Source: an uncultured virus (IMG/VR IMGVR_UViG_3300042196_000264)
Lineage: Duplodnaviria; Heunggongvirae; Uroviricota; Caudoviricetes
IMG/VR virus record: IMGVR_UViG_3300042196_000264
Reading direction: 5' to 3' (one strand)
Length of the DNA stretch: 64,000 bases
Below are positions 33,327 to 61,487 of the stretch, piece after piece (the stretch's first letter is position 1; each line of letters opens with the position of its first letter). Both the position numbers and the translations under genes were made by a program. Below the pieces are notes generated by a model that saw only the letters and a list, made by a program, of their open reading frames with translations, did no database searches and was not told the origin of the DNA.

Positions 33327-33424
33327 CTGGGTTTAACTTCTCGTTTTAAGGCCACATCGACGACCATGCATCCTCTACGAGGCGAGAACTAAGCCGTGTT
33401 GAGGACGGGGCCGAGGTCGTCCTG

Positions 33425-33983: not shown

Positions 33984-34012
33984 TAGCCGGAGTTCATACA
34001 CTCCAACAACCC

Positions 34013-34246: not shown

Positions 34247-34565
34247 CACATGACGGCTAGATGACCCACGGACGATCGAGCAGCCAGACTTCCCAGGCCC
34301 ATGACGCGATCTGATTGCTGACCGATTTTGTTCCATCCAGCCGGCACCCGAACGCTCGCACGTGGCCTGCAGAGTACTTCCCGTGGGCCTCGCGGACCAG
34401 GAACGCCAACACATCCTGCCAACTTTTGCCATGGACCCTGGCGTAGTAGGTGGACGGTACGGACCCGTCCAGAACATCCGTACAGTCACGCAGTTCGACG
34501 CCATTGATGTGCGTGATTGTGACGTGCCTGCGCCCGCGCTTGCCAGATTTCTTCATCGAAGGTCC

Positions 34566-34760
34566 TCAAGTGGGAACGGTAGCTGAGGAAGGGTTTCGTC
34601 CGCGGATCTCGTTCGACATGGCGACCTCGGCCTCGAGCCTCGAGCCGAAGCCGCACTTGCACGACAGGGGTCCGTTCCTGTAGCGGCTCGTGACCGTCTC
34701 TCGCCAGCACCAATGCTGGCGGTGCCGATCGAAGTAAACCGTGAAGCCTGGAAACCTCAT
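34566..34760 (-). CDS. Small hypothetical protein
   Basis: Coupled to the stop of the Gp88-like gene. Confidence 0.45.
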   Translation of the reverse strand: MRFPGFTVYFDRHRQHWCWRETVTSRYRNGPLSCKCGFGSRLEAEVAMSNEIRGRNPSSATVPT

Positions 34761-35953: not shown

Positions 35954-35992
35954 ACGTACAGGGTATCCTGGGGCTATGGTACCTTCAAGGAG

Positions 35993-36559
35993 GTGCCAGT
36001 CCTCGACCCCAGGCCATGGTTCTTCGACTACCAGCTGGCCCCCTGGCTCTCGGCCCTCCAACTCCGGGCCCACCTCGTCCACCACGCCGGGTACGTGAGC
36101 GAGGTGCGGGCCGCGGGGGACTTTGACGGGCTCGAGTCCGCCCTCGAGGAGGGGAGACGGGCGAACAACCTCAAGCTGATCCGTGCCGCCAACCAGGCAT
36201 GGAACCATCACATGCTCTGGCTCTCGCTCTCGCCGCGCGGCGGCGAGGTCCCGAAGCGCGGGCTCCTCGCCCAGACGAACGATATCTCGTCGAAGCTTCG
36301 CGCGGCGGCGATGGATGTCTGGGGCTCAGGCTGGGCATGGGTGACGCTCTACAAGAACAAGATCCGAGCGGTCTCGACACCGACGGATGAGAGGTGCCCT
36401 GGGTATCCTCTCCTATGCGTGGACATGTGGGAGCACGCCTACTACCTCGACTACATCGGAGATCGCGAACGGTACGTCGCAGAGATCATCATGAACCTCG
36501 TCAACTGGGAGTTCGCGGACATGCGGCTGAACGGGTTCGTCCCAGAGGAGTTGAGATGA
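35993..36559 (+). CDS. sod: Fe/Mn superoxide dismutase
   Basis: HHAGYV, WNH, GSGWAW and DMWEHAYY; all four metal ligands present; AAGGAG RBS. Confidence 0.9.
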   Translation: MPVLDPRPWFFDYQLAPWLSALQLRAHLVHHAGYVSEVRAAGDFDGLESALEEGRRANNLKLIRAANQAWNHHMLWLSLSPRGGEVPKRGLLAQTNDISSKLRAAAMDVWGSGWAWVTLYKNKIRAVSTPTDERCPGYPLLCVDMWEHAYYLDYIGDRERYVAEIIMNLVNWEFADMRLNGFVPEELR

Positions 36560-36757
36560 CGTACGACGACGGTGTTCTGCTCGAGCTCTACATCTCACTC
36601 GGGATCGAGATGGTCACGATCGACCGCTTGAGGCTGAGCGAGAAGACGAAGAATGCGATCGATTCTTGCCTCGGGACTCTCCTCGAAGGCATGACCAACG
36701 AAACGAAGTTACGGGCCGCCCATGCGGTCGTGAGTTTCAAGGAAAGGGATGGGAAAG

Positions 36758-36985
36758 ATGCCCCTGTTTGACTACGCGTGCAAGAAGTGCGGAGCAACGG
36801 AAGAGGTTCTGATGGGACGCGACGACGATGAGCCGTCCCACTGCGGGAAGACCATGGAGCGTCTCAAGTCGATCCCCCGTGGAATCGTCGTCAAGGGGTC
36901 TGACGGTCGTTCGGTGCGCCTTGGTGAAGAGACGGTGACGAAGGACGCCAACTTCACCTACACCGTCAAGAACGTGGAGGGGTGA
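36758..36985 (+). CDS. FmdB-family zinc ribbon protein
   Basis: MPLFDYACKKCG...HCG..MERL. Confidence 0.75.
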   Translation: MPLFDYACKKCGATEEVLMGRDDDEPSHCGKTMERLKSIPRGIVVKGSDGRSVRLGEETVTKDANFTYTVKNVEG

Positions 36986-37395
36986 TGCGGTGTCCGTACT
37001 GCGCCGGCAACCATCCGGCTGTCAGGCCTGTCAGCGCGTCGATCCTCAGCGCCGACCTCTCCAGGATGCTCGAGCAGGCCGGGTTCGTGCCTGAGGAGGC
37101 GACGGCGGTCCGGCACGCGCCGCTCGACCAGGAGCACGCTCGGAACCCAAGGCGGTACGCCCAGGTGGTACCGAACGATCTTCTGTTCGAGTTCTCGCAG
37201 GCGATCCTGTGGCTTCCTCGGGAGCATAGGATTGGACTGTTAGCGCACGAGGTCGGCCACTGCCTAGACCCCTTGGGCGGAGAAGACGGGGCGGACGAAG
37301 CAGCTCTCCGTGTCCTCGGCATCAAGATCGGCTACGATCCGCGTTGGCCTGGAAAGGGCCTTCAGACCGCAAGGAAGAAAAAATGGGCCTACTGA
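36985..37395 (+). CDS. HExxH metallopeptidase-like protein
   Basis: LLAHEVGH...E..AD. Confidence 0.6.
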   Translation: MRCPYCAGNHPAVRPVSASILSADLSRMLEQAGFVPEEATAVRHAPLDQEHARNPRRYAQVVPNDLLFEFSQAILWLPREHRIGLLAHEVGHCLDPLGGEDGADEAALRVLGIKIGYDPRWPGKGLQTARKKKWAY

Positions 37396-37922
37396 AGATC
37401 CCCTCCGCGCCACGCAAGTACCTCTACGAGGCCCCCGAGCTCGTGCCTGTTCCGTCAGGCAGGACTGCAGTAGAACTCGAGGGCATCGCAAGGAGCAGGA
37501 TCTCGCGAGCGGGCATGCGGATAGTGGTCTCCGAAACGCGGGACAACGCGGTCACCTGGCCCAATGGAGAAGTGGAACTCCCGCGCAACTGGAACTCACG
37601 AAGCGATGCTGACCAAGCGATCCTGCTCTGGCACGAGAGCGCGCATGCCTACCAGCGCAAGTCCATGGGTGCGTTCACCTATCGGTTTCGGTATGCGCTT
37701 GCCCAGGGGTGGTGGTTCGCGATGGAGGTCGAAGCCGAGCAACAGGAGATGTTGGCGATGCATCGGCTCGGCTTCACGTACTCGATCAAGTTGAACGAGG
37801 ACAGGCTTTGCGACGGAAAAACGTACAAGGCACTCTCCCGCTTCTACAACGAGAAGCATCTCCGTGAGATGTTCAGGGACGTGATGACCAAGAGGAAGAG
37901 GCTGATCGAGTCGACCCCGTGA
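37383..37922 (+). CDS. HExxH metallopeptidase-like protein
   Basis: LWHESAHAYQ...MEVEA. Confidence 0.65.
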   Translation: MGLLKIPSAPRKYLYEAPELVPVPSGRTAVELEGIARSRISRAGMRIVVSETRDNAVTWPNGEVELPRNWNSRSDADQAILLWHESAHAYQRKSMGAFTYRFRYALAQGWWFAMEVEAEQQEMLAMHRLGFTYSIKLNEDRLCDGKTYKALSRFYNEKHLREMFRDVMTKRKRLIESTP

Positions 37923-37926
37923 GCGG

Positions 37927-38280
37927 TCACGGAGCTCCGCGTCGTCTCATCTTGTGGCCTTCCCATAGTTCGCAAAGCATCGACTCAACCCGCGCACCGC
38001 ACCTCTTCCCGGACGGGTACTCGTGCCATACCGTCCCGCTCCCGACGTAGGTCTCCCCGTCCATCTCGATGACGTTGCCGCGGACGTCGTCCCAGAACTT
38101 CCAGCGCCTGGGAGGGTTCCCCTCCTCCTGGGCGGGCTGCGCATGGACCGCCATGGGGCGCCTGAACTGGATCGAGAGTCCGAAGAACGGCACTGGGAGA
38201 ACGTAGAGTGTCCGATCCTTGCGGCTCCAGTAGAAGCCGATCCAGAAGTCATACCAGGCGAAGATGAGGCGGACTTTCAT
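37927..38280 (-). CDS. Phage hypothetical protein
   Basis: FAWYDFWIGFYW motif; GAAGG RBS; directly downstream of the tRNA. Confidence 0.65.
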   Translation of the reverse strand: MKVRLIFAWYDFWIGFYWSRKDRTLYVLPVPFFGLSIQFRRPMAVHAQPAQEEGNPPRRWKFWDDVRGNVIEMDGETYVGSGTVWHEYPSGKRCGARVESMLCELWEGHKMRRRGAP

Positions 38281-38297
38281 GGTTCCTTCGCTTTCCG

Positions 38298-38373
38298 TGG
38301 TGCTCTCGGAAGGACTTGAACCTCCGACGCTCGGCACTTCAAGCCGACGCTCTACCAACTGAGCTACGAGAGC
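38298..38373 (-). tRNA. tRNA-Phe (GAA) with encoded CCA
   Basis: 76-nt cloverleaf: acceptor GCTCTCG/CGAGAGC-ACCA, anticodon arm TCGGC-TTGAAGT-GCCGA, T loop TTCAAGT. Confidence 0.93.
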
Positions 38374-38407
38374 TTTGCGATTGACGACGGGCCACCACGA
38401 GGAAGTA

Positions 38408-39385
38408 CTTGGATCTTCGTGTGAGGAAGATGTGTGTTGCGAGTGCGCACGAGGTCGACGTCCTGCCAACGGAGCGCCCTCCTGGATCTTCGTGTGAGGA
38501 AGAAGTGTGTTGCGAGATGGCGACCTCCGGTTGTCCCGTGAGGTACCGGGGGCTTGGATCTTCGTGTGAGGAAGAAGTGTGTTGCGAGTACCGCGCTACC
38601 GCCTCCTCCTTCCGCACCGCGTTCCTTGGATCTTCGTGTGAGGAAGAAGTGTGTTGCGAGTGGGGCGGGGCTATCATGCGGGTGCACGGCTGTGGATCTT
38701 GGATCTTCGTGTGAGGAAGATGTGTGTTGCGAGAGGGCGGTGGGTGCCTGCGGTACCTGGGACATGCCCACTTGGATCTTCGTGTGAGGAAGAAGTGCGT
38801 TGCGAGGTGACGCGAGCTTGCCGACGAAGCTCCGGTCCGAGACTTGGATCTTCGTGTGAGGAAGAAGTGCGTTGCGAGTGCAGACACCGGGTTGCCAGGT
38901 CGCGGTGTACGGACTTGGATCTTCGTGTGAGGAAGAAGTGTGTTGCGAGACCGGCGCTCTGGATAAGCGTATTCCAGCTTGACGTCTTGGATCTTCGTGT
39001 GAGGAAGAAGTGTGTTGCGAGGCTGGCTGGGCGAGCGCGCTCGCGGGCAGCGTCATCTTGGATCTTCGTGTGAGGAAGAAGTGTGTTGCGAGTTGTGCTC
39101 GCCCGCACTCGGCCTCCCAGCCATTCCTGCTTGGATCTTCGTGTGAGGAAGAAGTGTGTTGCGAGCTGCGTCGGGATGGCCTGGGACGGGGTGGCATGGC
39201 CGGCTTGGATCTTCGTGTGAGGAAGAAGTGTGTTGCGAGCTGACGACCACCGAGACCCACTCCCTGACGGGGGAGCTCTTGGATCTTCGTGTGAGGAAGA
39301 AGTGTGTTGCGAGTTCGAGCCTTTTCGCGTGAGCCTGGGAGTACTCGTCCTTGGATCTTCGTGTGAGGAAGAAGTGTGTTGCGAG
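38408..39385 (-). CRISPR. CRISPR array 2: 14 repeats, 13 spacers
   Basis: Repeat (minus sense) CTCGCAACACACTTCTTCCTCACACGAAGATCCAAG; 35-38 nt unique spacers. Confidence 0.97.
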
Positions 39386-39493
39386 AGCCACCCTGTTGCC
39401 ACGCTGGCGTGGTGATGAGGCAGTCGGCACATGCGCAGGATGGCACGCGACGTCTGAGTGCGTCAACCCCCGGCCTTGCGTGCTAGTGCAAAG
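39386..39493 (-). promoter_or_regulatory. Leader/promoter of array 2
   Basis: Same box, then TTGACG-N18-CATCCT. Confidence 0.8.
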
Positions 39494-39501
39494 TGAGGTG
39501 C

Positions 39502-40584
39502 TCACCGGGCCACCCACGTCAACTTCCGCGCCGCTCGTGTGGCCGCCGTGTACCGCCAGCGGCTGGCAGACCACATGTCCGCAACCTGGTCGAGCACGAG
39601 CACTCGATCCCACTCGCTGCCCTGCGCCTTGTGGGTCGTCAGGCAGTAGCCAAAATCGAAGAGACCGACGCTGCGTCTGTAGTCGTCGAGCTTCTTCGGC
39701 GCCCCGAATTGCTCCCAGTTCACGCGGACATCGGTGTAGGGCGTGCCATCGTCGGCAACGAAGTTGATCGTGTCGGCTCCGACGTCCGTCACGGAGCCCA
39801 TCATGCCGTTCCAGACGCCGAGTTCGTAGCTGTTCTGGAGACAGATCACCCGCTCTCCTAATCCTGGACGCGGGCCCGAGAACCCGAGTTGCCTCCTCAC
39901 CTTCGCGTTCACGGCGATGCGTGTGTTGTTGAAGCCGCACAGCACCACGTCGTAGTCGCAGACCCGTTCAGGGATCCTCCTCAGCACTTCCACGCTGGTA
40001 CCCGCGGACGCGTGGGAGGAAGACACCGGACTCACGTTGACACGCAGGTCATGGGCGAAGCGGATGATTGGGCTGCCGCTCGCTTGCCGATGGATCGTCT
40101 CGAGACGCGCGTCGAGGTGCCGCATGATCTCCGGGTCATCTCCGACTGGCTCGAGTTGGCCATGATCGCCGACGTACAGCACCTTCTTGCCGAAACTCTC
40201 GAGGTCGGACACGAGAGCGGAACTCAGCATCGAGGCCTCATCGACGACCACAAGATGGCATCCGATATGCCTGACCTTGCGGAAGCGAGGCGGATTCCCC
40301 TCCGCCTCGTAGATCAACCTGTGGACCGTCGTCGCAGGCACCCCCTTCGAGCGGAGCACGCTCGCCGCCTTGCCCGTCGGAGCACAGACGGCCACGCCCT
40401 CAGCGAGGTTCATGGTGTGGCTTCCCTCGTCCGTCCCACGTCCAAGGTTCAGGATCTCCTTGATGATGGTCGTCTTGCCCGTGCCGGCGTAGCCTCCGAG
40501 CACGAAGGTCTGCCGGAGCCCACTGGACAGCCACTCCGCGACGGAGTCCACCGCCGCGCGTTGTTCTTCGCTCAGGTCGATCAT
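39502..40584 (-). CDS. RecD/Dda-like SF1B DNA helicase
   Basis: GYAGTGKT, APTGKAA, TVHRL, VDEASM, GDHGQL, HRQ, TTHKAQGSEW, YTAATRA. Confidence 0.92.
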   Translation of the reverse strand: MIDLSEEQRAAVDSVAEWLSSGLRQTFVLGGYAGTGKTTIIKEILNLGRGTDEGSHTMNLAEGVAVCAPTGKAASVLRSKGVPATTVHRLIYEAEGNPPRFRKVRHIGCHLVVVDEASMLSSALVSDLESFGKKVLYVGDHGQLEPVGDDPEIMRHLDARLETIHRQASGSPIIRFAHDLRVNVSPVSSSHASAGTSVEVLRRIPERVCDYDVVLCGFNNTRIAVNAKVRRQLGFSGPRPGLGERVICLQNSYELGVWNGMMGSVTDVGADTINFVADDGTPYTDVRVNWEQFGAPKKLDDYRRSVGLFDFGYCLTTHKAQGSEWDRVLVLDQVADMWSASRWRYTAATRAARKLTWVAR

Positions 40585-40649
40585 CTTGCTCTAGGTGGCT
40601 TGGGGACGCCTTGACGTGTACCGTGCGTGACGGTAAGGTGCAAGTCCCC

Positions 40650-40946
40650 ATGCAACCACCTGGCCCTGACGACCCCATGAACCAAGACGCCCACGACCTC
40701 CACGAGAGGATCGAGGAGACCAAGTCCACCATCGTGACCATCCAGGACAGGATCAAGATCCTGCGCGAGATCGAGTCCGAAGTATTCGGCAAGATGGTCA
40801 CGCAGATCGACATCGCTCCGAAAACCAGGATCCTGGCGGACCTCGCGGTGGTCATCGCGGGCCAGCGAAGCTACCTTGAAGAGCTTCAGTCCAGCGTTGA
40901 GCCTGAACCCCTCAGAGCGTTCAGGTCACTCCTCAAGGGCCGATGA
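40650..40946 (+). CDS. Coiled-coil hypothetical protein
   Basis: First gene of a coupled + strand run; start uncertain. Confidence 0.55.
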   Translation: MQPPGPDDPMNQDAHDLHERIEETKSTIVTIQDRIKILREIESEVFGKMVTQIDIAPKTRILADLAVVIAGQRSYLEELQSSVEPEPLRAFRSLLKGR

Positions 40947-41350
40947 AGGTCTCCGCGGTCATCATCGCCGGCGGTCGAAACGTCCGGCTGAACGAACTCC
41001 AACGCAACGCCTTGGCGAGGCTGCTGATCCGGTTCCCTGAGTCCACCGTCATGAGCGGCGGTGCTTCTGGCGCGGATACCGACGGGGTTGAAGTTGCGAG
41101 CGGGCTCGGCCTCGAAATCCATGTCGAGCACGCTGACTGGACCACGTACGGCCGCTCCGCGGGGATCCGCAGGAACGCCGTGCTCGTGAAGCTCGCTCTG
41201 AACCGCGGGCGCGCCGTGCTGATCGCCTTCCCCGGAGGCCGAGGGACCGAGGATATGGTCACGAGATGCCGCCGTGCCGGGCTCATGGTGTTCCGTGTAG
41301 ACTCTTCCGGTGCGATCGGCGAACCTCAGGTTGAGGACTACGATGGCTGA
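40943..41350 (+). CDS. SLOG-superfamily (DUF2493/YspA-like) protein
   Basis: IIAGGR, SGGASGAD, ADW..YGRSAG.RRN, IAFPGGRGT. Confidence 0.85.
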   Translation: MKVSAVIIAGGRNVRLNELQRNALARLLIRFPESTVMSGGASGADTDGVEVASGLGLEIHVEHADWTTYGRSAGIRRNAVLVKLALNRGRAVLIAFPGGRGTEDMVTRCRRAGLMVFRVDSSGAIGEPQVEDYDG

Positions 41351-41660
41351 CATCCGAGAAGACATCCTTGTGCTCGCAGATAATCTCGACGATGTCTCAC
41401 CGGGCTTCTGGGTCTTGGCGCTCCGGGCGATCGTGAAGAAGCACGCTGCCGACCTGGACCGGATGCTTCGCGAGCGGAAGTGTCTCAACCTCCTGGCGGA
41501 CAACGGAGGCACCCTGGCATACGCGGACGGGGGGACCCGGTGCACGACGATGGGGCTCGACGGGGACCTCATCGAGACCCAATCTGAGGACACGTGCGAT
41601 GCAATCGAGAGGTGCTTCGCCAAGCTCGAAGAGACTCACCTCCGTAAGGACACGGCATGA
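41343..41660 (+). CDS. Hypothetical protein
   Basis: GAGG RBS; overlapping start. Confidence 0.55.
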   Translation: MADIREDILVLADNLDDVSPGFWVLALRAIVKKHAADLDRMLRERKCLNLLADNGGTLAYADGGTRCTTMGLDGDLIETQSEDTCDAIERCFAKLEETHLRKDTA

Positions 41661-41844
41661 CCCGTGCTGACTTCGAGCGGTGGTGCCTCATGGCGCCAGC
41701 ATGGTCACCGACGTGCGCGCGGACATCGGAAACCTCAGCTACACGCATCGTCGACCCAACGAAATTCGTTCCACCATGGCCCAAGATTCAACCGTACCGC
41801 GTGAGCCTGACCCTGCTTCCCGAACTTCCGGGGATCCCTGTGAG

Positions 41845-42129
41845 ATGACGGAGTGGTGGAAGACCCACCACCGAAGCCTGGGTTCGTCACCCACGTTCAC
41901 CGCCAAGATGGGGACACTGGAACTCGAGGTAGGCATCGAGTGCGATGGTTTTGCCTACTGGCAGGTGTCATGTTCCTCAGAGGACCAGCTCGCCGGTGGC
42001 AACGTCATCGATCCAGAGTTAGGGGACGGACCAAATGCACCGGACGGCTGGCAGAAACGAACGATCGCGATAGCGAAGGCGCGTTGCGAGAGGGTCGCTA
42101 GGACTCTCGCCGTGGAGGCCGCGGGATGA
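41845..42129 (+). CDS. Hypothetical protein
   Basis: ATGA coupling on both sides. Confidence 0.5.
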   Translation: MTEWWKTHHRSLGSSPTFTAKMGTLELEVGIECDGFAYWQVSCSSEDQLAGGNVIDPELGDGPNAPDGWQKRTIAIAKARCERVARTLAVEAAG

Positions 42130-42962
42130 CCGTCATCGAGTGGACGCACCCCCCGGGCTACAAAGGCGAAACCTGGAACCCGGCGACTGGATGCACGAAG
42201 GTCTCACAGGGATGCAAAAACTGTTTCGCAGAAGGTGTGGCTGAGAGGTTCTGGGGCGAGCGCAAGTTCACCGACGTTCGGATCCATCCCGAGCGCATCG
42301 GGAGTCCGCTGCGATGGAGGGATCCGCGGTTCGTCTTCGTCAACTCCATGTCGGATCTCTTTCACGAAGACATCGCCTTTAGCTTCGTGGCCTGCGTCGT
42401 CGACGTGATGCTGCAGACACCGCGGCACCGCTACATCGTGCTCACCAAGCGTCCACAACGCGCGAAGGATTTCTACCAATGGTGCGCGGACCAAGGCGGC
42501 GACGTGCCCAACAACCTGATCCTCGGCGTGTCTGCCGAGGATCAGAAGACCTTCGACGAGCGGGTCCCAGTGATCCTTGAGTGCCCAGCGGCTTGCTATG
42601 CCGTGAGCTACGAGCCGGCCCTCGACCAGGTGGACTTTTGTTTCGGCAGCTACCCGAGGAGCGGACCCCATGTGGAGTGGCTGATCGCCGGCGGTGAATC
42701 CGGACCGAACGCTAGGCCATGCGATGTCTCCTGGATACGTTCCGCGGTCTCCCAGGCACGGGACTCCGGATTCCCGGTGTTCGTCAAGCAACTCGGAACT
42801 CGGCCGCATCACGACTGCTCTCTTGGAGAGAAAAACTGGGACTGGTCTGAGTGTGAGACGCTCGCCAAGGTCCGTGATAGGAAGGGTGCGGACCCCAGCG
42901 AGTGGCCAGAGGACCTTCGTGTAAGGCAGTGGCCATCGATCCTCACGAAGGAAGACTCGTGA
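42126..42962 (+). CDS. Phage Gp37/Gp68 (DUF5131) radical SAM-like protein
   Basis: IEWT..TWNPATGCTKVSQGCKNCFAE, FVNSMSDLFH, LTKRP, WLIAGGESG, FVKQLG. Confidence 0.92.
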   Translation: MTVIEWTHPPGYKGETWNPATGCTKVSQGCKNCFAEGVAERFWGERKFTDVRIHPERIGSPLRWRDPRFVFVNSMSDLFHEDIAFSFVACVVDVMLQTPRHRYIVLTKRPQRAKDFYQWCADQGGDVPNNLILGVSAEDQKTFDERVPVILECPAACYAVSYEPALDQVDFCFGSYPRSGPHVEWLIAGGESGPNARPCDVSWIRSAVSQARDSGFPVFVKQLGTRPHHDCSLGEKNWDWSECETLAKVRDRKGADPSEWPEDLRVRQWPSILTKEDS

Positions 42963-43408
42963 TGGACATCGACCAGGTGATCGATCGCATCAGCGAAGGA
43001 CTGAAGCTTCCGCAGATCTCGTTCGCTTGGACGACGGAGGCGTTCTTGGCCGGTCACAAGACGGTGACGAGGCGCCAGGGGGCCAAGTGGATCCTCCTCA
43101 AGAAGGGAGACCTGCTCATGGCGATCGAGAAGGGGCAGGGACTGAAGCGCGGCGAGAAGGTCCGAAGGCTCGACGTCATCGAGGTCGTGAGCGCCATCCG
43201 AGTGGGAGTGTCATCGATCAACTACGAAGACCTATTTCGCGAGGGAGGGTCTTGGAAAAGCACCGAGGAGTTCGTCGAGATGTACTGCCGCGGGAACCGC
43301 TGCGAACCGGGTCACCTCTGCACACGCATCGAGTTCCGGAGACTCGGCGTTCCAGATGACGTGCTGAAGTCTGGGCAGATGGTTGCATCAAGGAGCGCTC
43401 GGCCATGA
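42961..43408 (+). CDS. ASCH/PUA-like protein
   Basis: ISF...GHKTVTRR...KKGDLL...REG...FVEM...RIEF; start approximate. Confidence 0.7.
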
Positions 43409-43623
43409 AGCCGAAGAAGACCACCGTCAAGCGAACGGGACCCATCACAAAACCGTGGCCCGTGTTCACGCGCGCGCTCGAAGAGGGGATCCGCGCCGGG
43501 CTCGTGCGCTCTCGCAAGCACACGGAAAGCCCAACCGATGAGGAGGTCTTCCAGAAGGTCTACGACTCCGTGCTCAACGAGGTACTCGAGGTCTTCGACT
43601 TTCCGGACGAGTGCGACTCTTGA
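43405..43623 (+). CDS. Phage hypothetical protein
   Basis: ALEEGI.AG..RSRKHTESP pattern. Confidence 0.6.
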   Translation: MKPKKTTVKRTGPITKPWPVFTRALEEGIRAGLVRSRKHTESPTDEEVFQKVYDSVLNEVLEVFDFPDECDS

Positions 43624-44654
43624 TCCGCGGCGGCTCCCTCTTCTCTGGGATCGGTGCGCTCGACCTCGCCATGGAACGCTGCGGCATCAGCGTTGCGTGG
43701 CAGTGCGAGAAGGACCCCTACTGCAGGACGCTCCTGGCCAAGCACTGGCCAGGAGTACGATGCTACGAGGACATCACACATGTCGACTTCGCATCAGCTG
43801 ACCCTGTGGACGCTCTCTTCGGAGGTTTCCCGTGCCAGGACGTCAGCGGAGCAGGGCTCCGTGCCGGTATGTCCGGCTCCCGTTCTGGACTCTGGCGGGA
43901 GTTTGCTCGAGCCGTTCGCGTGGTACGACCCAAGCTCGTCTACGTGGAAAACGTGGGCTCGGGACGGAGCCGGTATCTCGGAGACGTACTCGGGGACCTG
44001 GTCGAGCTCGGGTACAGTACAGGGTGGAATAGCCTGGAAGCGTGTGATGTCGGAGCCACGCAACTCCGGGATCGGTGCTTCATTCTGGGCTACACCGACC
44101 GCGACCAACTACGGCAGCTCGCAGAATGGCTTCAAGCGCAACCAGCCGAGCGGCGGGACACCCTCGCTCGAGAACATGGCGCGGGAGTTCCATCAGCGCG
44201 AGGACCTCTGGCCGACGTCATTAGCCGTGGATGCGAAGGATCTAGCCCAGTCGCAGGAGTATCAGGACGATCCGAAAAACGGAGCGAGCCTCCTCACGAT
44301 GGTGCGTGGGTTTCACCGGCGAGCGGACTTGTGGCCGACTGCAACGACAACGGATGCGAAGGACTCCGCCCGGCACACGACCACGTCGGAAGTCATGCAC
44401 CCGGGCACGATGCTGCTCGACGAGGTGAGGAACTTCCATTCCCGCCCGGACCTCGAGCCCCTACCGAAGAGTGGCGGGAGTGGTTCTCACGCGGTGGTCC
44501 TGCGCCCGGAGTTCGTCGAGACGCATATGGGGATCCCCGTGGGGTGGACGCACGACGACGGAAGTACCGACTTTACGTCCTTGGCAATGCCGTGGTCCCA
44601 GCGCAAGCGGAAGCCGCCTTCCGGTGGCTGATCGAGCGGCATGCTAGGATGTAG
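43611..44654 (+). CDS. dcm: C5 cytosine DNA methyltransferase, main polypeptide
   Basis: SLFSGIG (I), GGFPCQD (IV), VENV (VI), QLRDR (VIII), LGNAVVP (X). Confidence 0.88.
   Translation: MRLLIRGGSLFSGIGALDLAMERCGISVAWQCEKDPYCRTLLAKHWPGVRCYEDITHVDFASADPVDALFGGFPCQDVSGAGLRAGMSGSRSGLWREFARAVRVVRPKLVYVENVGSGRSRYLGDVLGDLVELGYSTGWNSLEACDVGATQLRDRCFILGYTDRDQLRQLAEWLQAQPAERRDTLAREHGAGVPSARGPLADVISRGCEGSSPVAGVSGRSEKRSEPPHDGAWVSPASGLVADCNDNGCEGLRPAHDHVGSHAPGHDAARRGEELPFPPGPRAPTEEWREWFSRGGPAPGVRRDAYGDPRGVDARRRKYRLYVLGNAVVPAQAEAAFRWLIERHARM
43780..44631 (+). CDS. Overlapping alternative-frame polypeptide of the methyltransferase (TRD/motif IX-like)
   Basis: Nested frame with repeated W(A/P)T..A.D.K units and LRPEFVETHMGIPVGWT. 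Confidence 0.7.
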   Translation: MSTSHQLTLWTLSSEVSRARTSAEQGSVPVCPAPVLDSGGSLLEPFAWYDPSSSTWKTWARDGAGISETYSGTWSSSGTVQGGIAWKRVMSEPRNSGIGASFWATPTATNYGSSQNGFKRNQPSGGTPSLENMAREFHQREDLWPTSLAVDAKDLAQSQEYQDDPKNGASLLTMVRGFHRRADLWPTATTTDAKDSARHTTTSEVMHPGTMLLDEVRNFHSRPDLEPLPKSGGSGSHAVVLRPEFVETHMGIPVGWTHDDGSTDFTSLAMPWSQRKRKPPSGG

Positions 44655-44658
44655 AGCA

Positions 44659-45465
44659 ATGCCAACGGTTCTGCCGAGCATCGATGTCACCATGCTGGCC
44701 TATAAGGAGCCAGCGATCGAGCACAACATCCGGAGTTGGCTTCCGCATGCAAGGAAGATTGTCGTGGTTGCAGGGGCAACCCTGGAAGCTCGAGGAGCCG
44801 GGTTCCCGGCCGTAGATGACGTGCTGGTGGAAAATCTCAGGATCATGGCGTTCCATGATTGCAGGATAGTCGTAGTGGACCGTGACACGTACTGGAAAGA
44901 CAAGAACGAGATGGCCGCGGCAGCTGCTGAACACCTGGGGGCAGACATCGTATGGCAGGTCGACGCAGACGAATTCTACTTCGCGGACGACATCGAACGA
45001 GCCAGGATGGAACTGGCTGACGATGGATGGGTCATCGCCAAGATGCCTCACATCATATTCTGGAAAGACAAGGAGCACGTGCTCCGTAGCCGTGCTGGCG
45101 ATGACTGGTTCGTACCTCAGCGCATCTGGAGGCGAGCGGACGGGGAAAGGTTCCTGCACCTTCCGTTCGGCACGATCCAGAAGTCAGATGGATCAGTGAC
45201 GACGTACGAGGGGAACGGCGTTCGAACTCTCGGATGGGGCCGCTGTTATCACAGTTGTTGGTGCCCACCTGCCGAGCGGATCGCATTCAAGTTTGCCTAT
45301 CACAAAGCAAGGGGAGACGGCGGATCCGAGCGATGGATCCATGATGTATGGGAAAACGGAGTGATCCCGCCAGAAGGTGTGCATCCCGGACAGACTGGGA
45401 TCTTTCCGACTCCGTTTTCCGGGCCGTGGCCACCAGCCTTTGTCGCGTCAGTTGAGTGCAAATGA
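44659..45465 (+). CDS. GT-A fold (GT2-like) glycosyltransferase
   Basis: WQVDADEFY DxD motif; lower GC than neighbours. Confidence 0.7.
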   Translation: MPTVLPSIDVTMLAYKEPAIEHNIRSWLPHARKIVVVAGATLEARGAGFPAVDDVLVENLRIMAFHDCRIVVVDRDTYWKDKNEMAAAAAEHLGADIVWQVDADEFYFADDIERARMELADDGWVIAKMPHIIFWKDKEHVLRSRAGDDWFVPQRIWRRADGERFLHLPFGTIQKSDGSVTTYEGNGVRTLGWGRCYHSCWCPPAERIAFKFAYHKARGDGGSERWIHDVWENGVIPPEGVHPGQTGIFPTPFSGPWPPAFVASVECK

Positions 45466-45491
45466 AAACACCACCGTTGCTGGCCATGCGG

Positions 45492-45516
45492 CTGCGTCGG
45501 GCTTCGCCCGACGCAG
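45492..45516. terminator. 11-bp perfect hairpin between the convergent GT gene and array 3
   Basis: CTGCGTCGGGC-TTC-GCCCGACGCAG; no clear U tract. Confidence 0.55.
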
Positions 45517-45539
45517 GTGTTGGAGTACCTAGGGATCCG

Positions 45540-46597
45540 CTTGGATCTTAGTGTGAGAAAGAAGTGTGTTGCGAGCGCAGCGACGGAGCGTCTGCCGCTG
45601 CTTCATCAGGTCCTGGATCTTCGTGTGAGGAAGAAGTGTGTTGCGAGGCGAACTCTACGGCCGCCCCCAGAGGTCTCGTCTGGCCTGGATCTTCGTGTGA
45701 GGAAGAAGTGCGTTGCGAGTCGGCGCCACGTCGGTGATCGTGAGTAGTGGATCGGTGTCCCTGGATCTTCGTGTGAGGAAGAAGTGTGTTGCGAGGCACC
45801 ATCCTGGGTCCGCTGGTGAAATATCACCGTCCTGGATCTTCGTGTGAGGAAGAAGTGTGTTGCGAGCCGAGACGATCCAGGCGGGGCTCCTGGACATCCT
45901 GCTCCTGGATCTTCGTGTGAGGAAGAAGTGTGTTGCGAGAAGGCATGATCAGCTTTGAGGCCACAGCGAACGCCATCCCTGGATCTTCGTGTGAGGAAGA
46001 AGTGTGTTGCGAGTACTCGCTCGCGCAGGTCGTGGAGGCCCTTGGGTCCCCTGGATCTTCGTGTGAGGAAGAAGTTGTGCTGCAAAGCCGTGCCCGTGAG
46101 CCCCCAGAGGAAGAGCGTACAGCGGCCTGGATCTTCGTGTGAGGAAGAAGTGTGCTGCAAGTCCAAGCCCGCCACGGTGCAGCTTGTCCTGTTTGGGCCT
46201 GGATCTTCGTGTGAGGAAGATGTGCGTTGCGAGTTCGCCCTGACGTTCGGCACCCTGCCCACGATGCGATACCTGGATCTTCGTGTGAGGAAGAAGTGTG
46301 TTGCGAGCGGGCAGGCCTGGATCGCGGTCGAGGGGGCAGGACGGGCCCTGGATCTTCGTGTGAGGAAGAAGTGTGTTGCGAGACTGCGCCCCCTGCGCCG
46401 GGCGCAGAAACGGTGGCACCTGGATCTTCGTGTGAGGAAGAAGTGTGTTGCGAGACGATCGTGGTGAACGGCCGGGAGATGCAGGTCGACCTGGATCTTC
46501 GTGTGAGGAAGAAGTGTGTTGCGAGGAGGATACGGGCGTGCGGTTGGCCGCGGACTGCATTCCTGGATCTTCGTGTGAGGAAGAAGTGTGTTGCGAG
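45540..46597 (-). CRISPR. CRISPR array 3: 15 repeats, 14 spacers
   Basis: Repeat (minus sense) CTCGCAACACACTTCTTCCTCACACGAAGATCCAGG; 35-40 nt spacers; degenerate leftmost repeat. Confidence 0.97.
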
Positions 46598-46707
46598 GGC
46601 CCCACTGTTGCCACGCTAGCATGGTACTGGGACCGTCGGCACTTGCGCAGGATGGCACGCGACGTCTGAGCGCGTCAAGGGCCGGTCTTGCGTGCTAGTG
46701 CAAAACC
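46598..46707 (-). promoter_or_regulatory. Leader/promoter of array 3, divergent from the effector gene
   Basis: Same box, then TTGACG-N18-CATCCT. Confidence 0.8.
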
Positions 46708-46783
46708 ATTCGCTAGAGCAAAGATCATGGGCGTGTCGATTTTCGCTTGTAGCTTTCCGTTCGGGACGGTAAGAAGCCCTCAC

Positions 46784-48586
46784 GTGGTCGACGCGAAACC
46801 AGACGCCAAGAAGGGCGTGCGCAGCAGGCTCCTCGAAGAGAAGAAGTCTCGGCGGGAGGCAGCGCTGCAGGACGGGCTCATGTGCGTGTACCAAGCGTAC
46901 AAGTACGAGATCCGTGAACGCTCGCCAGGACAGTTCCAGTTGCTGGCCAGGCACGCTGGCCTGAGCAGGTTCGCGAAAAACTGGTCGCTCCGGTTCTGGG
47001 TCAAGGAGCGAGAGGAGTTCGAGCGCGCGCGCGAACACATCAAGCTGCTGAAACTCGATGGATCCGCGGAAGCGGGCATCGCAGAGATCCAGAAGGTGCT
47101 TGACGAAGCCGTGAGGTCCTACTGGAGCTCGGCCATCCATGAGTCGTGGACGAAGGAAGCCCGCGATGTCGTGGACGAGATCGTGGCGTCCGCTCCGTTC
47201 GCCATCGTTCTGAACCTCGAACAGCAGCAGGAGAAGAGGGAGAAGATCGCGAAGGCGAAGGCAAAGGAAGCGGCGAAAAAGGCGAAGGAGGCGGCGAAGA
47301 GGTCTGCTTCCTCCCGCCGCAGCGTGGGCAGGCTCCGATCTGCAGCTCTTCCAGAAAAGGAAAAGGAAGAGGACAAGCCGCTGGAGATCGTAGAGCATCG
47401 GCGCACCCCTCTTGGGCTGCTGTCGAGGCTGTGGACGCAAACCGTCAAGCAGGTCTGCGTGAGCAGGGAGGATGGAAGCTTCTGGGCTGCGGGCCTGACC
47501 AGATGGGCCGCACAGGGTGCCCTCATCGCCACGGACGGAGCCTATTTCACGCACTTCAAAGCCCGTGCCAAGGCCAATCGTGGAGAGCTCTCTCGCGACG
47601 CAGTCCCAGGGCTCCCGACCTTCAAGAAGCGTAACGGGAAGAAGTCGTTCGCGGTCCAGTACTCGGGCGTCAAGTTGCCGCACGACGATGCGTCCCTTCG
47701 ACCCGATGAGGTGAAGGTCCAGGGCGTTGGAGTCGTAAGGCTCTACGAAGGACTGCAGAAGTTCCAGGGGACGATCAAGGCTGTCTCGGTCTCGAGCGAG
47801 GTTCGCGGCCGCTGGTGGATCTCGTTCACCGTCGAACGGACGCGACCGATCCCACGGCGTCGGCCGCAACCACGGGTAGGCGTCGACCTCGGAGCCAGGG
47901 ACACGATCACGCTCTCCGACGGCGTGGCGCACGAGCGCTCCTGGGAGGCTCCGAAACCGCTCGCCAACTCGCTCAAGAGGTTGCGTCGTCTCAGCAGGGC
48001 CCAGAGTCGTCGGAGAAAACCGTCGTGGGATAAGGAGACGCATGAGACCCTCGTCGAGGGGAGCAGCGGTTGGTACAAGGCTCGCCTCGAGGTCGCCAAG
48101 CTCAATTTCAAGATCGCGTGCCAGCGGCGGAACTGGCTCCACAACGTCACCACCGAGATCGCGAAGACGTACACCGACATCGTCATCGAGGGGTACAACG
48201 CCCGCGAGCTCGTGAAGAAGTCTCGCAAGGTCGTGAAGACGAAGGAGGGCCGTCGTAACATGGCCGACTCCGCAGTGGGGATGGCGCGATGGATGCTCAA
48301 GTACAAAGGTGACTGGTACGGGTGCCACGTCACCGTCGCCGACTCCAAGCTCCCCGCGAACAAGACCTGCTCCGTGTGCGGATGGGTGTCCCAACGCACG
48401 CAGTCCAAGAGGATCTACAAGTGTGATGCCTGCGGACAGCAGTGCATCAGGCCGATCAACACGGCAAGGTTTCTCGCTCGGTTTCGGCCAGGTGAGGAAG
48501 GACCGGCTATGGAATCCGGTCCCAAACTGGGTGGAGAGGACAAGCTAGCCCCGTCGGAAACGGCGGACGTGATGCCTCCTCCGTGA
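46784..48586 (+). CDS. tnpB: CRISPR-associated TnpB/Cas12-like RNA-guided protein, probably nuclease-dead
   Basis: AYKYEI...LLARHAG.SRF..NW, PTFKKR, GVDLG (RuvC-I), IVIEG (RuvC-II), CSVCG...CDACG zinc finger; RuvC-III reads IRPINTA in place of DRDxNAA; likely GTG start, about 600 aa. Confidence 0.88.
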   Translation: MVDAKPDAKKGVRSRLLEEKKSRREAALQDGLMCVYQAYKYEIRERSPGQFQLLARHAGLSRFAKNWSLRFWVKEREEFERAREHIKLLKLDGSAEAGIAEIQKVLDEAVRSYWSSAIHESWTKEARDVVDEIVASAPFAIVLNLEQQQEKREKIAKAKAKEAAKKAKEAAKRSASSRRSVGRLRSAALPEKEKEEDKPLEIVEHRRTPLGLLSRLWTQTVKQVCVSREDGSFWAAGLTRWAAQGALIATDGAYFTHFKARAKANRGELSRDAVPGLPTFKKRNGKKSFAVQYSGVKLPHDDASLRPDEVKVQGVGVVRLYEGLQKFQGTIKAVSVSSEVRGRWWISFTVERTRPIPRRRPQPRVGVDLGARDTITLSDGVAHERSWEAPKPLANSLKRLRRLSRAQSRRRKPSWDKETHETLVEGSSGWYKARLEVAKLNFKIACQRRNWLHNVTTEIAKTYTDIVIEGYNARELVKKSRKVVKTKEGRRNMADSAVGMARWMLKYKGDWYGCHVTVADSKLPANKTCSVCGWVSQRTQSKRIYKCDACGQQCIRPINTARFLARFRPGEEGPAMESGPKLGGEDKLAPSETADVMPPP

Positions 48587-48646
48587 AGCCCGGACTTCGT
48601 GTGAACTGCTTCGCCTCCCGGCAGGTAAATCTCGGGAGGCACTTTT
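48500..48646 (+). ncRNA. Putative tracrRNA derived from an omega-RNA scaffold
   Basis: Nested hairpins overlapping the gene end; CTTCGTGTGA at 48595-48604 is complementary to the crRNA repeat; 5' end uncertain. Confidence 0.75.
48613..48646 (+). terminator. Terminator after the putative tracrRNA
   Basis: GCCTCCCG...CGGGAGGC followed by ACTTTT. Confidence 0.7.
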
Positions 48647-49698
48647 CACGCTCGACGCTTGCGTAGGCGCGAGACTTGAGCACCGCTTCCGCGGGAATGC
48701 TTTCCAGATCCCTTCTTGCTCGGAGAACCGTGGATCAGGATCTCCTCCAACTCGTCGACCAACTTGCGAGGGGAACTCGTCCTGGCGTCGTCGTAGCGCT
48801 GCAGCATCGCTACTCCTGCGTGGCGTGTGAGCCTGGAAACGTCGCGGAGGTTTCCGTCCGTCATGTCCAGAGCGGTCGTCGCCCCGGTGTGACGCAACCC
48901 GTGTGGACGGATCCGCTTTCCATGCGAAGCGCTGATCCTGTCGAAGAGCCGCCTGACCGCAGCGATCGTCAACCTCTTCCCGCTGGACCTGTTTCCGAGC
49001 GTGATGAAGAGCGGGCCTTTCTCCTTCCCGCGGATCGCGAGCCATGCACGGATCGCATCCGCCGTCATCGCGCCGATCGGAAACCAAGATTTCTCACGCT
49101 TGCCCTTCCCGCGGAAGCGGATCTGCGGTTCCTTGCCGAGGTCCAGGTCTTCCGGGAAGTCGATGGCGAGCGGCTCCATCCGGCGCAGCAGGCAGGTCGA
49201 GTAGATCCTGACGAGCGCGAGGTCCCGGGTCGCCAGTGGGTCCCCCGCCGTCGCCAGTCTCGCGAGCTCGGCGTCGATTTCCCGGACGGACGTCGCCCCG
49301 GGGCCCGAGGGGTCACGCTTGGCCTCGTGGCGGACGCTGTCCACCTCGAGGGTCCAGGAGCAGAGGCCCAGGAGCCTGGCGACCCGCAGGAACGCATTCA
49401 GGCTGGCCAGCCTGCGGTTCACCGTGGAGCTGGCCAGGCCCGCCTCGCGGGCCTCGTCCCGCCACTCCAGCACGAGGGCGTTGGCCTCGGGTCCGGGGCG
49501 GCTGAGCAGGTCTGCGAGGGCGGACCTGGCGTCCGGGGTGCCCATGAACGCCGCCAGCGAGCGGAAGTCCCGTTCGTACTCGGCCGCCGAGGCCTTGGAG
49601 AGGCTGGCCAGGAGCCGTTCGTAGGCCCCGCTGCTGGGGCGCCTTGCGGCCTGGCGGGGGACTACGGCGGCGACGGGGGGCAGCTTGGCTGGGAGCAC
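48646..49698 (-). CDS. Tyrosine recombinase/integrase
   Basis: STVNRRLASL, RDLAL, LRRME, GKG, HGLRH, TRH, QRYDD; catalytic set intact; likely GTG start at 49698. Confidence 0.92.
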   Translation of the reverse strand: MLPAKLPPVAAVVPRQAARRPSSGAYERLLASLSKASAAEYERDFRSLAAFMGTPDARSALADLLSRPGPEANALVLEWRDEAREAGLASSTVNRRLASLNAFLRVARLLGLCSWTLEVDSVRHEAKRDPSGPGATSVREIDAELARLATAGDPLATRDLALVRIYSTCLLRRMEPLAIDFPEDLDLGKEPQIRFRGKGKREKSWFPIGAMTADAIRAWLAIRGKEKGPLFITLGNRSSGKRLTIAAVRRLFDRISASHGKRIRPHGLRHTGATTALDMTDGNLRDVSRLTRHAGVAMLQRYDDARTSSPRKLVDELEEILIHGSPSKKGSGKHSRGSGAQVSRLRKRRA

Positions 49699-49825
49699 CC
49701 GGAAAGTCCTAGCACACAAAATGGAAGCCTTTGTGACCTAGGAACAGGGGTTTCCACCCCCTCAAACACGCGTAAACAGCGCGCTATCTTAGGATTCCTA
49801 TAAGAGTTATAAGGGGCCGGACATC

Positions 49826-53037: not shown

Positions 53038-54157
53038 GCCCGATCATGCACATGGCACGGACGCGGACGCGGTCGGGGTCGGGGTCACGGACGCGGTCGG
53101 GGCCGGTGTCGCGGTCGCGGTCGCGGTCGGTGTCGCGGTCGGGGTCGCGGTCGGTGCCGCGGTCGGGGTCGTGGTCGTGGTCGCGGTCGCGGTCGTGGTC
53201 GCGGGCGCGGTCGCGGGTGCGGTCGTGGTCGGGGGGGTCGTGGTCGTGGTCGGGGTCGTCAGGAGGTGCCAGATGAGTCCGGTGATCCGCATGGCGTGTT
53301 CGCGAGTGTCGTGGGGAATGGGGTCGGTGTCGCGGTCGCTGTCGCTGTCGGTGTCGCGGTCGCGGTCGCGGGTGCGGTCGTGGTCGGGGTCGGGGTCGGG
53401 GTCGCGGTCGCGGTCGTGGTCGCGGGCGCGGTCGCGGGTGCGGTCGTGGTCGGGGGGGTCGTGGTCGTGGTCGCGGTCGTCAGGAGGTGCCAGATGAGCC
53501 CGGTGATCCGCATGGCGTGTTCGCGAGCGTTGTGGGGACTGGGGTCGCGGTCGGGGTCGTGGTGGTGGTCGCGGTCGCGGTCGCGGTCGCGGATGCGGTC
53601 GGGGTCGGGGTCGGGGTCGCGGTCGTGGTCGCGGTCGTGGTCGCGGATGCGGTCGTGGTCGTGGTCGTGGTCGTGGTCGCGGTCGCGGACGCGTTCGTCA
53701 GGAGGTGCCAGATGAGCCCGGTGATCCGCATGGCGTGTTCGCGAGTGTTGTGGGGACTGGCGTCGGTGTCGCGGTCGGCGTCGCGGTCGCGGTCGCGGTC
53801 GCGGTCGGGGTCGCGGTCGTGGTCGGGGACTCGGACGCGGACGGGGTCGTGGTCGTGCTCGCGGTCGGGGTCGCGGTCGCGGTCGCGGGTGCGGTCGTGG
53901 TCGGGGTCGCGGTCTCGGGCACGTTCGTCAGGAGGTGCCAGATGAGTCCGGTGATCCGCATGGCGTGTTCGCGAGCGTTGTGGGGACTGGGGTCGGGGTC
54001 GGGGTCGCGGTCGGGGTCGCGGTCGGGGTCGGGGTCGCGGTCGCGGTCGCGGTCGGGGTCGGGGTCGCGGTCGCGGTCGCGGTCGTGGATGCGGATGTGG
54101 TCGTGGTCGTGGTCGTGGTCGCGGTCGCGGTCGCGGTCGTCAGGAGGTGCCAGGTGA
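53034..54157 (+). repeat. Five tandem mini-genes encoding (Ser-Arg/Gly/Trp)n peptides
   Basis: ORFs 53034-53276, 53273-53497, 53494-53715, 53712-53945 and 53942-54157; junctions TCAGGAGGTGCCAGATGAG; body is (TCG-NGG)n. Confidence 0.85.

Positions 54158-58542: not shown

Positions 58543-61487
<2,945 letters not shown>

Follow-up and report, generated by a model that had tools for sequence, protein, structure and literature searches.

A TnpB-like effector with an altered RuvC-III position, its CRISPR arrays on a probable phage, and the array-linked clade around it

What does a TnpB-like protein do when one carboxylate of its RuvC site has become a proline and its gene stands beside a CRISPR array? 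The question is raised by 64,000 nts of the IMG/VR record IMGVR_UViG_3300042196_000264, an uncultured Caudoviricetes virus; this whole stretch of DNA is the one analysed here, and we call it the window. A sequence-only reading had seen in it a virus-borne, independently evolved type V-like system that represses or blocks DNA instead of cleaving it, made of a TnpB-family protein of about 600 residues and one divergently oriented 15-repeat array. The relatives that we have collected indicate that the window effector is no one-off but belongs, as a divergent member, to a wider CRISPR-linked family, and that the change at its RuvC-III position is, across the aligned proteins, systematic and not a lesion.

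An altered RuvC site common to a clade

The effector gene (Table 1) lies in an enclosing open reading frame (ORF), 46688-48586 (+), with Pfam matches to OrfB_IS605 (2.8e-13) and Cas12f1-like_TNB (2e-09). Its likely start is the ATG at 46880, because the homologue P0002 and the HTH_OrfB match both begin there and the leader of array A3 fills 46598-46704; the assignment to the TnpB family stands, and the proposed size of about 600 residues comes down to a likely 568. NCBIfam returns IS607_TnpB (4.6e-50, below that family's cutoff) and guided_TnpB (1.6e-42). The AlphaFold2 (AF2) model, built on a 134-row alignment, has a predicted local distance difference test score (pLDDT) of 87.5 and a predicted template modelling score (pTM) of 0.81. 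With this model Foldseek places ISDra2 TnpB (8h1j/8exa) at the top, with E 2e-18 and a template modelling score of 0.76-0.81 on the target, followed by Cas12f, Cas12p and Cas12m. Pfam, AF2 and Foldseek describe a single large effector with a TnpB/RuvC-like fold, as is generic for type V. The long helical insertion claimed from the sequence is borne out: about 135 residues are extra relative to the shortest clade members (18-sequence alignment and AF2), and the model has four long helices (residues 18-57, 64-85, 92-104 and 109-147) followed by a disordered linker. The C-terminal tail, residues 542-568, is also disordered in the model (pLDDT <50). The gene is single-copy, with no second effector copy in the window. 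Near-identical DNA occurs in sediment-metagenome contigs from other studies, which argues that the effector gene is maintained: contigs of run X3 span 46687-48800, including the whole gene, with 1 differing base, and those of run X1, which may be the window's own source sample, have 0 differing bases over most of the stretch. No run recorded as RNA is listed among those that contain this DNA.

All three catalytic codons had been named correctly, with the RuvC-I Asp and the RuvC-II Glu intact and Pro in place of the RuvC-III Asp. HMMER alignments set R-P-I-N-T-A of the window opposite R-D-x-N-A-A of ISDra2 TnpB (8bf8/8h1j). The reported change of the usual SS-K-T-C to ANKTC is also real (PANKTC replaces PSSKTC), and alteration before the zinc finger is common to the whole clade. 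An exhaustive search of 1.84 billion representatives gives only one close relative among the matches listed, P0002, with 556 residues and 62-66% identity and encoded on an 11.9-kb contig; it keeps I-R-P-I-N-T-A, and the matches after it fall to E 1e-42. We aligned 151 proteins, namely that of the window, P0002 and 149 of the 150 best matches listed in the same search. Their RuvC-III column holds D in 120 proteins and another residue in 31 (Q 14, E 5, R 5, P 3, G 2, N 1, A 1). About 20 of the non-Asp proteins share E-G-[F/Y/W] at RuvC-II, R-[Q/R/P]-x-N-T-A at RuvC-III and P-T-[D/N]-x-x-C before the zinc finger. Whether homologues keep the D-to-P change thus has a twofold answer: P0002 does, and in the surrounding clade the loss of Asp is universal. 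Every clade member has Q, R or P at RuvC-III together with N-T-A and E-G-[F/Y/W], with the exception of L085, which has E-N-F. The invariant positions of the 18-sequence clade alignment include Asp336, Glu437, Gly438, Arg524, Asn527, Thr528 and the four zinc-finger Cys. Among acidic residues only Asp336 and Glu437 are invariant or nearly so, and therefore the alignment shows no conserved carboxylate that could stand in for the lost one. Two further TnpB relatives, P0015 and P0078, have all three RuvC positions replaced (by Ala, Gln and Gly), and P0015 has N-T-A as well; the two pair with each other, outside the array-linked clade.

The clade is recovered in unrooted trees by two programs. FastTree was run on 138 rows, with 13 fragments shorter than 330 residues left out, and it places the window protein and P0002 on a long branch within an 18-member group (Shimodaira-Hasegawa-like support 99). 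An IQ-TREE quick search was run on 61 rows, with six genes from fetched loci added, and on 65 rows, with four V-U4-like proteins further added; in both, 24 rows form one side of a branch with Shimodaira-Hasegawa approximate likelihood-ratio support of 98 (61 rows) and 99 (65 rows). Clade effectors range from 417 to 691 residues (417 in L099, 591 in L110), and the members are known only from metagenome and metagenome-assembled genome data. Three other proteins, P0154, P0085 and P0101, have clade-like E-G-[F/W] and R-R-x-N-T-A yet fall among Asp-type TnpBs in the 138-row and the 61-row tree, a placement that could reflect convergence, recombination or a tree artefact. In IMG/VR no close relatives are found, either by protein or by repeat: the back-translated motif gives 3 chance matches only, and the clade repeat pattern gives 55 single chance matches, 0 of them with an array or a clade gene. 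A tblastn search of the effector against isolated phages and plasmids finds only ordinary TnpBs at 24-33% identity, and 0 records covering 80% of the query.

Arrays, their linkage to the clade and a shared leader box

Array linkage was assessed in two sets of loci. A scan of genome contigs with a generic pattern kept 80 TnpB loci, of which 1 belongs to the clade. This is L001, on a 158-kb contig binned as Flavipsychrobacter, where about 20 copies of a 36-nt repeat begin 8 nt past the stop codon. A metagenome scan with the back-translated clade motif gave 30 loci, 21 of them chance matches in unrelated frames and 9 apparent clade genes; the presence of an array was no selection criterion here, and the motif demanded R-Q-x-N-T-A, so that the linkage covers Gln-type members plus the window. 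All five full-length metagenome genes (L085, L090, L099, L105 and L110) have arrays. Among the genes cut by contig ends, L092 has three repeats, and L089, L103 and L106, on contigs of 1.0-2.6 kb, have none. Homologous 36-nt-repeat arrays are therefore present in 7/7 full-length loci, counting the window and L001, so that the array linkage is seen in homologues and the conserved association of effector and array expected of a type V system is found. In the 61-row tree, the array-linked loci belong to the window pair and to three larger starred subclades out of four; P0008, P0023 and the P0040/P0053 pair, the last two of Arg or Pro type, are members without a locus in this set. Judged from these loci, CRISPR linkage is a property of the clade.

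Read in the direction of the gene, the clade repeats start with CTCGCA[A/G]C (GTCGCAGC in L099) and mostly end with G[A/G]TG[C/T]CAC. The window repeat, which on the minus strand reads CTCGCAACAC...GATCCA[A/G]G, fits this repeat family. The array is upstream and inverted in the window and in L110; in the five other full-length loci, and likewise in the partial L092, it stands downstream of the gene, on the same strand, and reads CTCGCA... or a close variant. The neighbours of the clade loci are of the mobile-element kind (ParB, DUF3310, integrase, RadC, helicases); none of them is conserved, and no cas1, cas2, cas4 or transposase was found among them. The fetched loci also include two V-U4/Cas12n-like genes with canonical R-D-L-N-A-A, PADLOC Cas12u4 scores of 640-650 bits and CRISPR-like arrays just downstream: in L070 (Streptomyces netropsis) the gene is at 1288-2919 and the array at about 2982-3300, with 6 k-mer copies, and in L075 (Kitasatospora brasiliensis) they are at 5434-7155 and about 7257-8200, with 16 k-mer copies.

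The 15-repeat array reported beside the effector is confirmed, and it is one of three. Arrays A1, A2 and A3 belong to one 36-nt repeat family and together hold 35 repeats and 32 unique spacers; A3 alone had been seen before. At up to 3 mismatches the repeat core matches the window 28 times, always in A2 or A3, compared to 0 expected (100 shuffles); one A3 copy with an indel and all six A1 copies fall outside this threshold. We set the repeat at 36 nt and the spacers at 35-45 nt (median 36) because every one of the 32 spacers, as delimited at first, had C as its last letter. The spacers are all different (32/32), 0 match the window, and their mean GC is 0.67 in a window of 63% GC; being all different and without a match in the window, they are by these sequence marks real. 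A megablast search of 33400-46700 against phages and against plasmids gives 0 matches as targets, and so does one spacer of the 32 used as a 26-nt seed against IMG/VR. Contigs of X1 and X3 contain repeat-flanked spacers that are absent from the window (joints 38699-38733 and 46127-46161), one of which, by eye, equals window spacer 38950-38985 except for 3 positions. This suggests further arrays outside the window or co-existing strain variants. A tRNA-Phe gene (GAA anticodon), 38298-38373 (-), lies 35 nt past the leader-distal end of A2 on the strand predicted for the array transcript, and an Rfam scan returns a tRNA only. For the window as a whole, the claim that no tnpA, cas1 or cas2 is visible agrees with the profile searches, in which Pfam on 53 ORFs and PHROGs on 60 give 0 matches to cas1, cas2, cas4 or the Y1 and serine transposase families; the insertion sequence (IS) ends named in the same claim were not searched explicitly.

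The polarity of the arrays backs the divergent arrangement of effector and array. The most degenerate repeat of every window array is the leftmost one. On the right, gene-proximal side the three arrays share a near-identical flank of about 107 nt; their left flanks are unrelated. These degenerate ends, the right-side leader and the orientation in the clade lead us to infer a minus-strand reading of the arrays. Comparing, for nine arrays (the three of the window and six from other loci), the 130 nt that lie upstream of the first repeat, we find that a shared box, CACG[AC][AC]AG-N24-32-CGTGC, precedes 9/9 arrays on the array's strand. The box has 4 matches in the window, compared to 0.21 expected, and elsewhere occurs in only 3 of 162 other fetched loci. 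The distance from the end of the box to the first repeat is 56-57 nt in 8/9 arrays and 79 nt in L099. In L001, the box sits within the 3' end of the effector ORF. RNAalifold on the nine box copies gives only an invariant 5-bp stem with 0 covariation. In the three window leaders the minus strand has 5 pairs with both partners changed and the plus strand has 0, and these sequences are too alike to be informative. A TTGACG-17 nt-CATCCT/CATGAT arrangement in the window leaders was noticed by eye only, and the other loci do not conserve it.

Several other RNA elements were looked for. A trans-activating CRISPR RNA (tracrRNA) or anti-repeat in the leader is set aside for want of evidence: none was found, the duplex energies of leader and repeat are within background, and cognate pairs (mean -18.6 kcal/mol) do no better than non-cognate ones (-25.1). 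The repeat-like stretch just past the stop codon of the effector (Table 1) has a score equal to several chance-level matches in the window and a duplex energy at about the 5th percentile of background. In 48595-48647, between the effector gene and the integrase gene convergent with it, a GC-rich hairpin (CCTCCCG...CGGGAGG) followed by CACTTTTC is visible by eye; it could be a terminator shared by the two genes, though a consensus scan made no call there.

Table 1. Positions of the effector, its RuvC residues, the arrays and associated elements in the window. Strands of arrays and leader-like modules are those predicted from array polarity.
Feature	Positions	Strand	Description
Effector gene	46880-48586	+	568 residues plus stop, from the likely start; TnpB fold; N-terminal WED strand, helical REC insertion, RuvC, intact CxxC...CxxC zinc finger
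REC insertion	46997-47410	+	Residues ~40-177; helical, Lys/Glu/Ala-rich; from alignment, AF2 secondary structure and composition
RuvC-I Asp336	47885-47887	+	GAC, motif VGVDLG; kept; invariant in the 18-member clade alignment
RuvC-II Glu437	48188-48190	+	GAG, motif VIEGYN; kept; next residue Gly (E-G-Y), usually E-D-L
RuvC-III position, Pro525	48452-48454	+	CCG, motif CIRPINTA; catalytic Asp in TnpB and Cas12
CRISPR array A1	33470-33873	-	6 copies of a variant repeat, 5 spacers; 5 differences from the main repeat, 8 in the outermost copy
CRISPR array A2	38409-39385	-	14 repeats, 13 spacers
CRISPR array A3	45541-46597	-	15 repeats, 14 spacers; degenerate repeat at the 45541 end
Leader-like module of A1	33874-33980	-	Box at 33931-33970
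Leader-like module of A2	39386-39492	-	Box at 39443-39482
Leader-like module of A3	46598-46704	-	Clade-wide box at 46655-46694
17-nt repeat-like stretch	48588-48604	+	Directly past the stop codon; weak lead

Known relatives and the carrier element

By sequence and fold the closest known proteins are the TnpBs of IS200/IS605 and IS607 (ISDra2, PDB 8h1j/8exa), with the same domain order and zinc finger; the clade profile against the PDB finds TnpB at 1.3e-79, RdCas12n at 2e-71, Cas12f at 5e-14 and UnCas12m4a at 3e-10. Unlike TnpB, the window system has no TnpA or multicopy signature, arrays where TnpB has a single omega-RNA guide, a REC part longer by about 135 residues and a replaced Asp where the canonical triad is D-E-D. 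The nearest named Cas12 by sequence is Cas12n/V-U4 (RdCas12n, PDB 9j09), with E 4e-20 for the protein and 2e-71 for the clade profile, and it is likewise small, TnpB-like and array-linked. Cas12n, however, keeps canonical D-R-D-L-N-A-A where the window clade is altered, and the two form separate clades in the tree. PADLOC Cas12u4 scores are 138-270 bits for the clade (170 for the window), 281-310 for three ordinary TnpBs and 640-680 for four V-U4-like proteins, so that neither profile score nor tree placement puts the clade in V-U4/Cas12n.

A parallel in organization is Cas12m (V-M, formerly V-U1; MmCas12m2, GoCas12m), which resembles the effector in its compact TnpB-like core of about 600 residues and its long helical REC insertion, and resembles the window system as a whole in having a stand-alone effector, ~36-nt repeats, a non-canonical RuvC, and neither adaptation genes nor a tracrRNA. 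The helical REC insertion of Cas12m effectors is described in PMC11013384 and PMC10442227; that of the window occupies a position analogous to the 'Roof' (residues 50-124), a likeness of position and not of homology, and it is Lys/Glu/Ala-rich where the 'Roof' is Arg-rich. Cas12m is described as silencing by binding without cutting, with D-E-D, H-D-D and N-D-D effectors that bind dsDNA and leave it uncut (PMC10442227, PMC11013384). The Cas12m triads reported in these two sources (HEK/HQK, HDD, DED/NED, DND, NDD) change positions I and II, whereas the window has D-E-P and its relatives D-E-Q or D-E-R. Sequence does not place the effector in the Cas12m family either: in the PDB searches UnCas12m4a comes up at E 0.32 for the protein and at 3.4e-10 for the clade profile, neither query finds Cas12m2 at E<=0.01, and the PADLOC Cas12u1 score is 5.7e-07. 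The low Cas12m and Cas12u4 scores, together with the separate clades in the trees, therefore indicate that by sequence the clade is neither Cas12m nor Cas12n. The phylogenetic and sequence comparison with these two families thus agrees with independent evolution in so far as the lineage is separate from both; a one-off invention in this virus does not fit the wider clade.

That RNA-guided proteins of TnpB/Cas12 descent can end up binding DNA and not cutting it is established, with TldR and Cas12k as further instances. TldR proteins are truncated, without RuvC-III and zinc finger, and use one fixed guide beside the regulated gene and are not known to have arrays; Cas12k works with Tn7-like transposition genes. 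In contrast, the window effector has its zinc finger intact (the four Cys are invariant) and its RuvC-III helix present, and it stands among long arrays with 32 spacers, with no transposition genes seen. We also rejected identity with Casdelta, which has 867-936 residues and canonical D-E-D, and with the myxophage MvCas12m, whose D305/E463/D555 have a different spacing. A likeness of setting is found in Cas12r of the Thermus Lalka phages (10.64898/2026.04.20.719267), described there as a phage-encoded, TnpB-derived effector of about 565 residues with its own array, no cas1/cas2, no tracrRNA and an integrase nearby, and proposed to act in conflicts between mobile elements. Compared by description, it differs in its 29-bp degenerate repeats (36 here), its downstream array and the numbering of its catalytic Asp; the same source puts it in a TnpB branch of thermophiles and reports that its interference needs RuvC and is abolished by D238A. 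Our tblastn search with the effector covers 50,697 phage records with no match above 31% identity, and whether the Lalka genomes are among these records was not checked.

The carrier of the window system is probably viral. The full sequence containing the window has 119,894 bp (protein database row), and in at least two cases the contig with a clade gene is phage- or plasmid-like and 120-160 kb long. Phage-type genes in the window (DUF5131, GP88, ChaB, a Dda-like helicase, a sliding clamp, a C5 methyltransferase, a tyrosine integrase and tRNA-Phe) speak for the virus-borne origin first proposed. Two large collagen-repeat ORFs, 58543-60804 (-) and 61502-63853 (-), match tail-fibre PHROGs with E down to 1e-84, matches that are largely driven by Gly-X-Y repeats. 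No capsid, portal or terminase is recognised in the window by Pfam (53 ORFs) or PHROGs (60), and two ESM Atlas look-ups give no usable match; therefore a phage is probable but not proven. Other features of the window are a run of about 180 copies of the 6-nt repeat CGGTCG (53058-54139) and an Fe/Mn superoxide-dismutase-like ORF, 35993-36559 (+), with a Sod_Fe_C match at 1.1e-20. The C5 cytosine methyltransferase ORF, 43611-44654, has a Pfam match to its N-terminal 168 residues only, and inside it lies a 65-nt direct repeat (44176-44240 and 44299-44363, 71% identical).

Binding, cutting or regulation

A CRISPR-linked TnpB derivative is what the sequence-only reading had claimed, and this part holds; that the protein is nuclease-dead and represses or blocks DNA is a prediction from sequence. 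The picture that we favour is a stand-alone type V-like CRISPR system on a probable temperate phage or phage-like element, in which the 568-residue TnpB-derived effector would take its CRISPR RNAs (crRNAs) from three arrays. These arrays would be transcribed on the minus strand from the conserved leader, and each crRNA would carry the 36-nt repeat at its 5' end and a ~36-nt spacer at its 3' end. The complex would recognise dsDNA targets and block them by tight binding, as a roadblock to transcription or replication, and not by cutting, and the large helical REC insertion would help hold the guide-target duplex. The role left to Asp336 and Glu437 would be the binding of one metal ion or of the displaced strand, or perhaps RNA processing. 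The likely targets would be competing mobile elements or host genes of about 67% GC, and new spacers would come from a host adaptation module acting in trans.

Binding-based silencing without cleavage, as in Cas12m, is an outcome that we consider probable by a modest measure. We prefer binding to cutting because the third carboxylate is lost (Pro) and the neighbouring acids are lost with it, E-D having become E-G and D-R-D having become I-R-P; both losses, together with the presence of Gln, Arg or Pro at RuvC-III within one clade, argue against two-metal DNA cleavage. The strict retention of Asp336 and Glu437 says, as far as the alignment goes, that the pocket still matters. Several points weigh on the other side. 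The predicted loss of cleavage is read from one residue class. Conserved, specific RuvC-III substitutions may mean an altered but active nuclease, as considered in Altae-Tran et al. 2023, and strictly kept Asp336 and Glu437 are what would be expected if some catalysis remains. The disordered tail of the model (residues 542-568) might supply a compensating residue. For Arg- and Pro-type members the linkage data come from the window only. A consensus scan of 45300-48800 for promoters and terminators passed 0 sites. Finally, there are three arrays with 32 spacers, yet no adaptation genes were found, which is unexplained.

The alternative with most to say for itself is that the effector is still a nuclease, with D-E-[Q/R/P] as a rearranged working site or with nicking, single-strand or RNA cleavage as its activity, and that the system works by ordinary cleavage interference. 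Single alanine substitutions in the RuvC triad are reported to abolish cleavage by ISDra2 TnpB; here residues as chemically unlike as Gln, Arg and Pro share one position, the flanking acids of E-D and D-R-D are gone, and no other acidic residue is invariant in the 18-sequence alignment. We therefore regard an active nuclease as unlikely, if a candidate of real weight: the clade keeps Asp336 and Glu437 without exception, what replaces the third residue is specific and conserved and not random, and both the overall fold and the zinc finger are intact. Altae-Tran et al. 2023 take conserved RuvC-III alterations as possibly active, and Cas12r, also phage-borne and TnpB-derived, is described as having active RuvC-dependent interference (10.64898/2026.04.20.719267).

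A second alternative keeps the binding and changes its purpose: the effector would be an exapted RNA-guided regulator or recruiter that silences host genes for the phage, in the manner of TldR, or guides an enzyme such as the adjacent tyrosine integrase. The integrase gene (48646-49719) is convergent with the effector gene and 60 nt downstream of it, L001 has an integrase about 1.2 kb beyond its array, and associations of tyrosine recombinases with inactivated TnpBs are reported in Altae-Tran 2023. Host targets would also fit a spacer GC (0.67) above that of the element (0.63). An integrase is present in only 2/7 loci, however, with no other conserved neighbour, and long diverse arrays (32 spacers) resemble repertoires for immunity or competition, not fixed regulatory guides, which makes such a regulator distinctly improbable. 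That this is an ordinary transposon-borne TnpB beside an unrelated array by chance we dismiss as hardly credible. Its best family matches are indeed TnpB models, but no TnpA is found, the window has no second copy, a single close relative is listed, and the linkage to homologous repeats and the leader box is clade-wide.

If the favoured picture of binding without cutting is extended from the window to the clade, we arrive at a more tentative proposal. The clade would be an unnamed type V subtype in which the RuvC-III Asp was replaced in the common ancestor, the whole lineage would consist of compact DNA binders, and the box would be a remnant of the omega-RNA or a part of it that is still in use; we hold this as possible but rather less likely than not. 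The box is read as an ancestral omega-RNA remnant from L001, where it lies within the 3' end of the effector ORF, which is the site of the omega-RNA scaffold in TnpB. About 50 independent transitions from TnpB to Cas12 and 40 unnamed V-U groups are recorded (PMC10691335; PMC12669027), and the clade may be one of the unnamed groups V-U6 to V-U45. In the literature we found no description of the D-E-[Q/R/P], R-x-x-N-T-A clade with CTCGCA repeats, or of the leader box, the tables for V-U6 to V-U45 not having been compared. Binding-only effectors are already known. The finding is real and coherent but not categorically new.

If binding without cutting is true of it, the clade would be a second independently evolved natural 'dead' miniature Cas12-like family after Cas12m, with a different active-site solution, in which position III is lost and positions I and II are kept. 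Members down to 417 residues would be useful for compact CRISPR interference, base-editing and epigenome tools. Phages and other mobile elements would then carry large guide repertoires, here three arrays with 32 spacers, for non-destructive silencing. The leader box at its fixed distance would give a handle on the origin of arrays from the omega-RNAs of TnpB, and on how arrays are transcribed and extended without cas1 and cas2. If the omega-RNA reading of the box is true, the clade would be a living intermediate between omega-RNA and CRISPR arrays.

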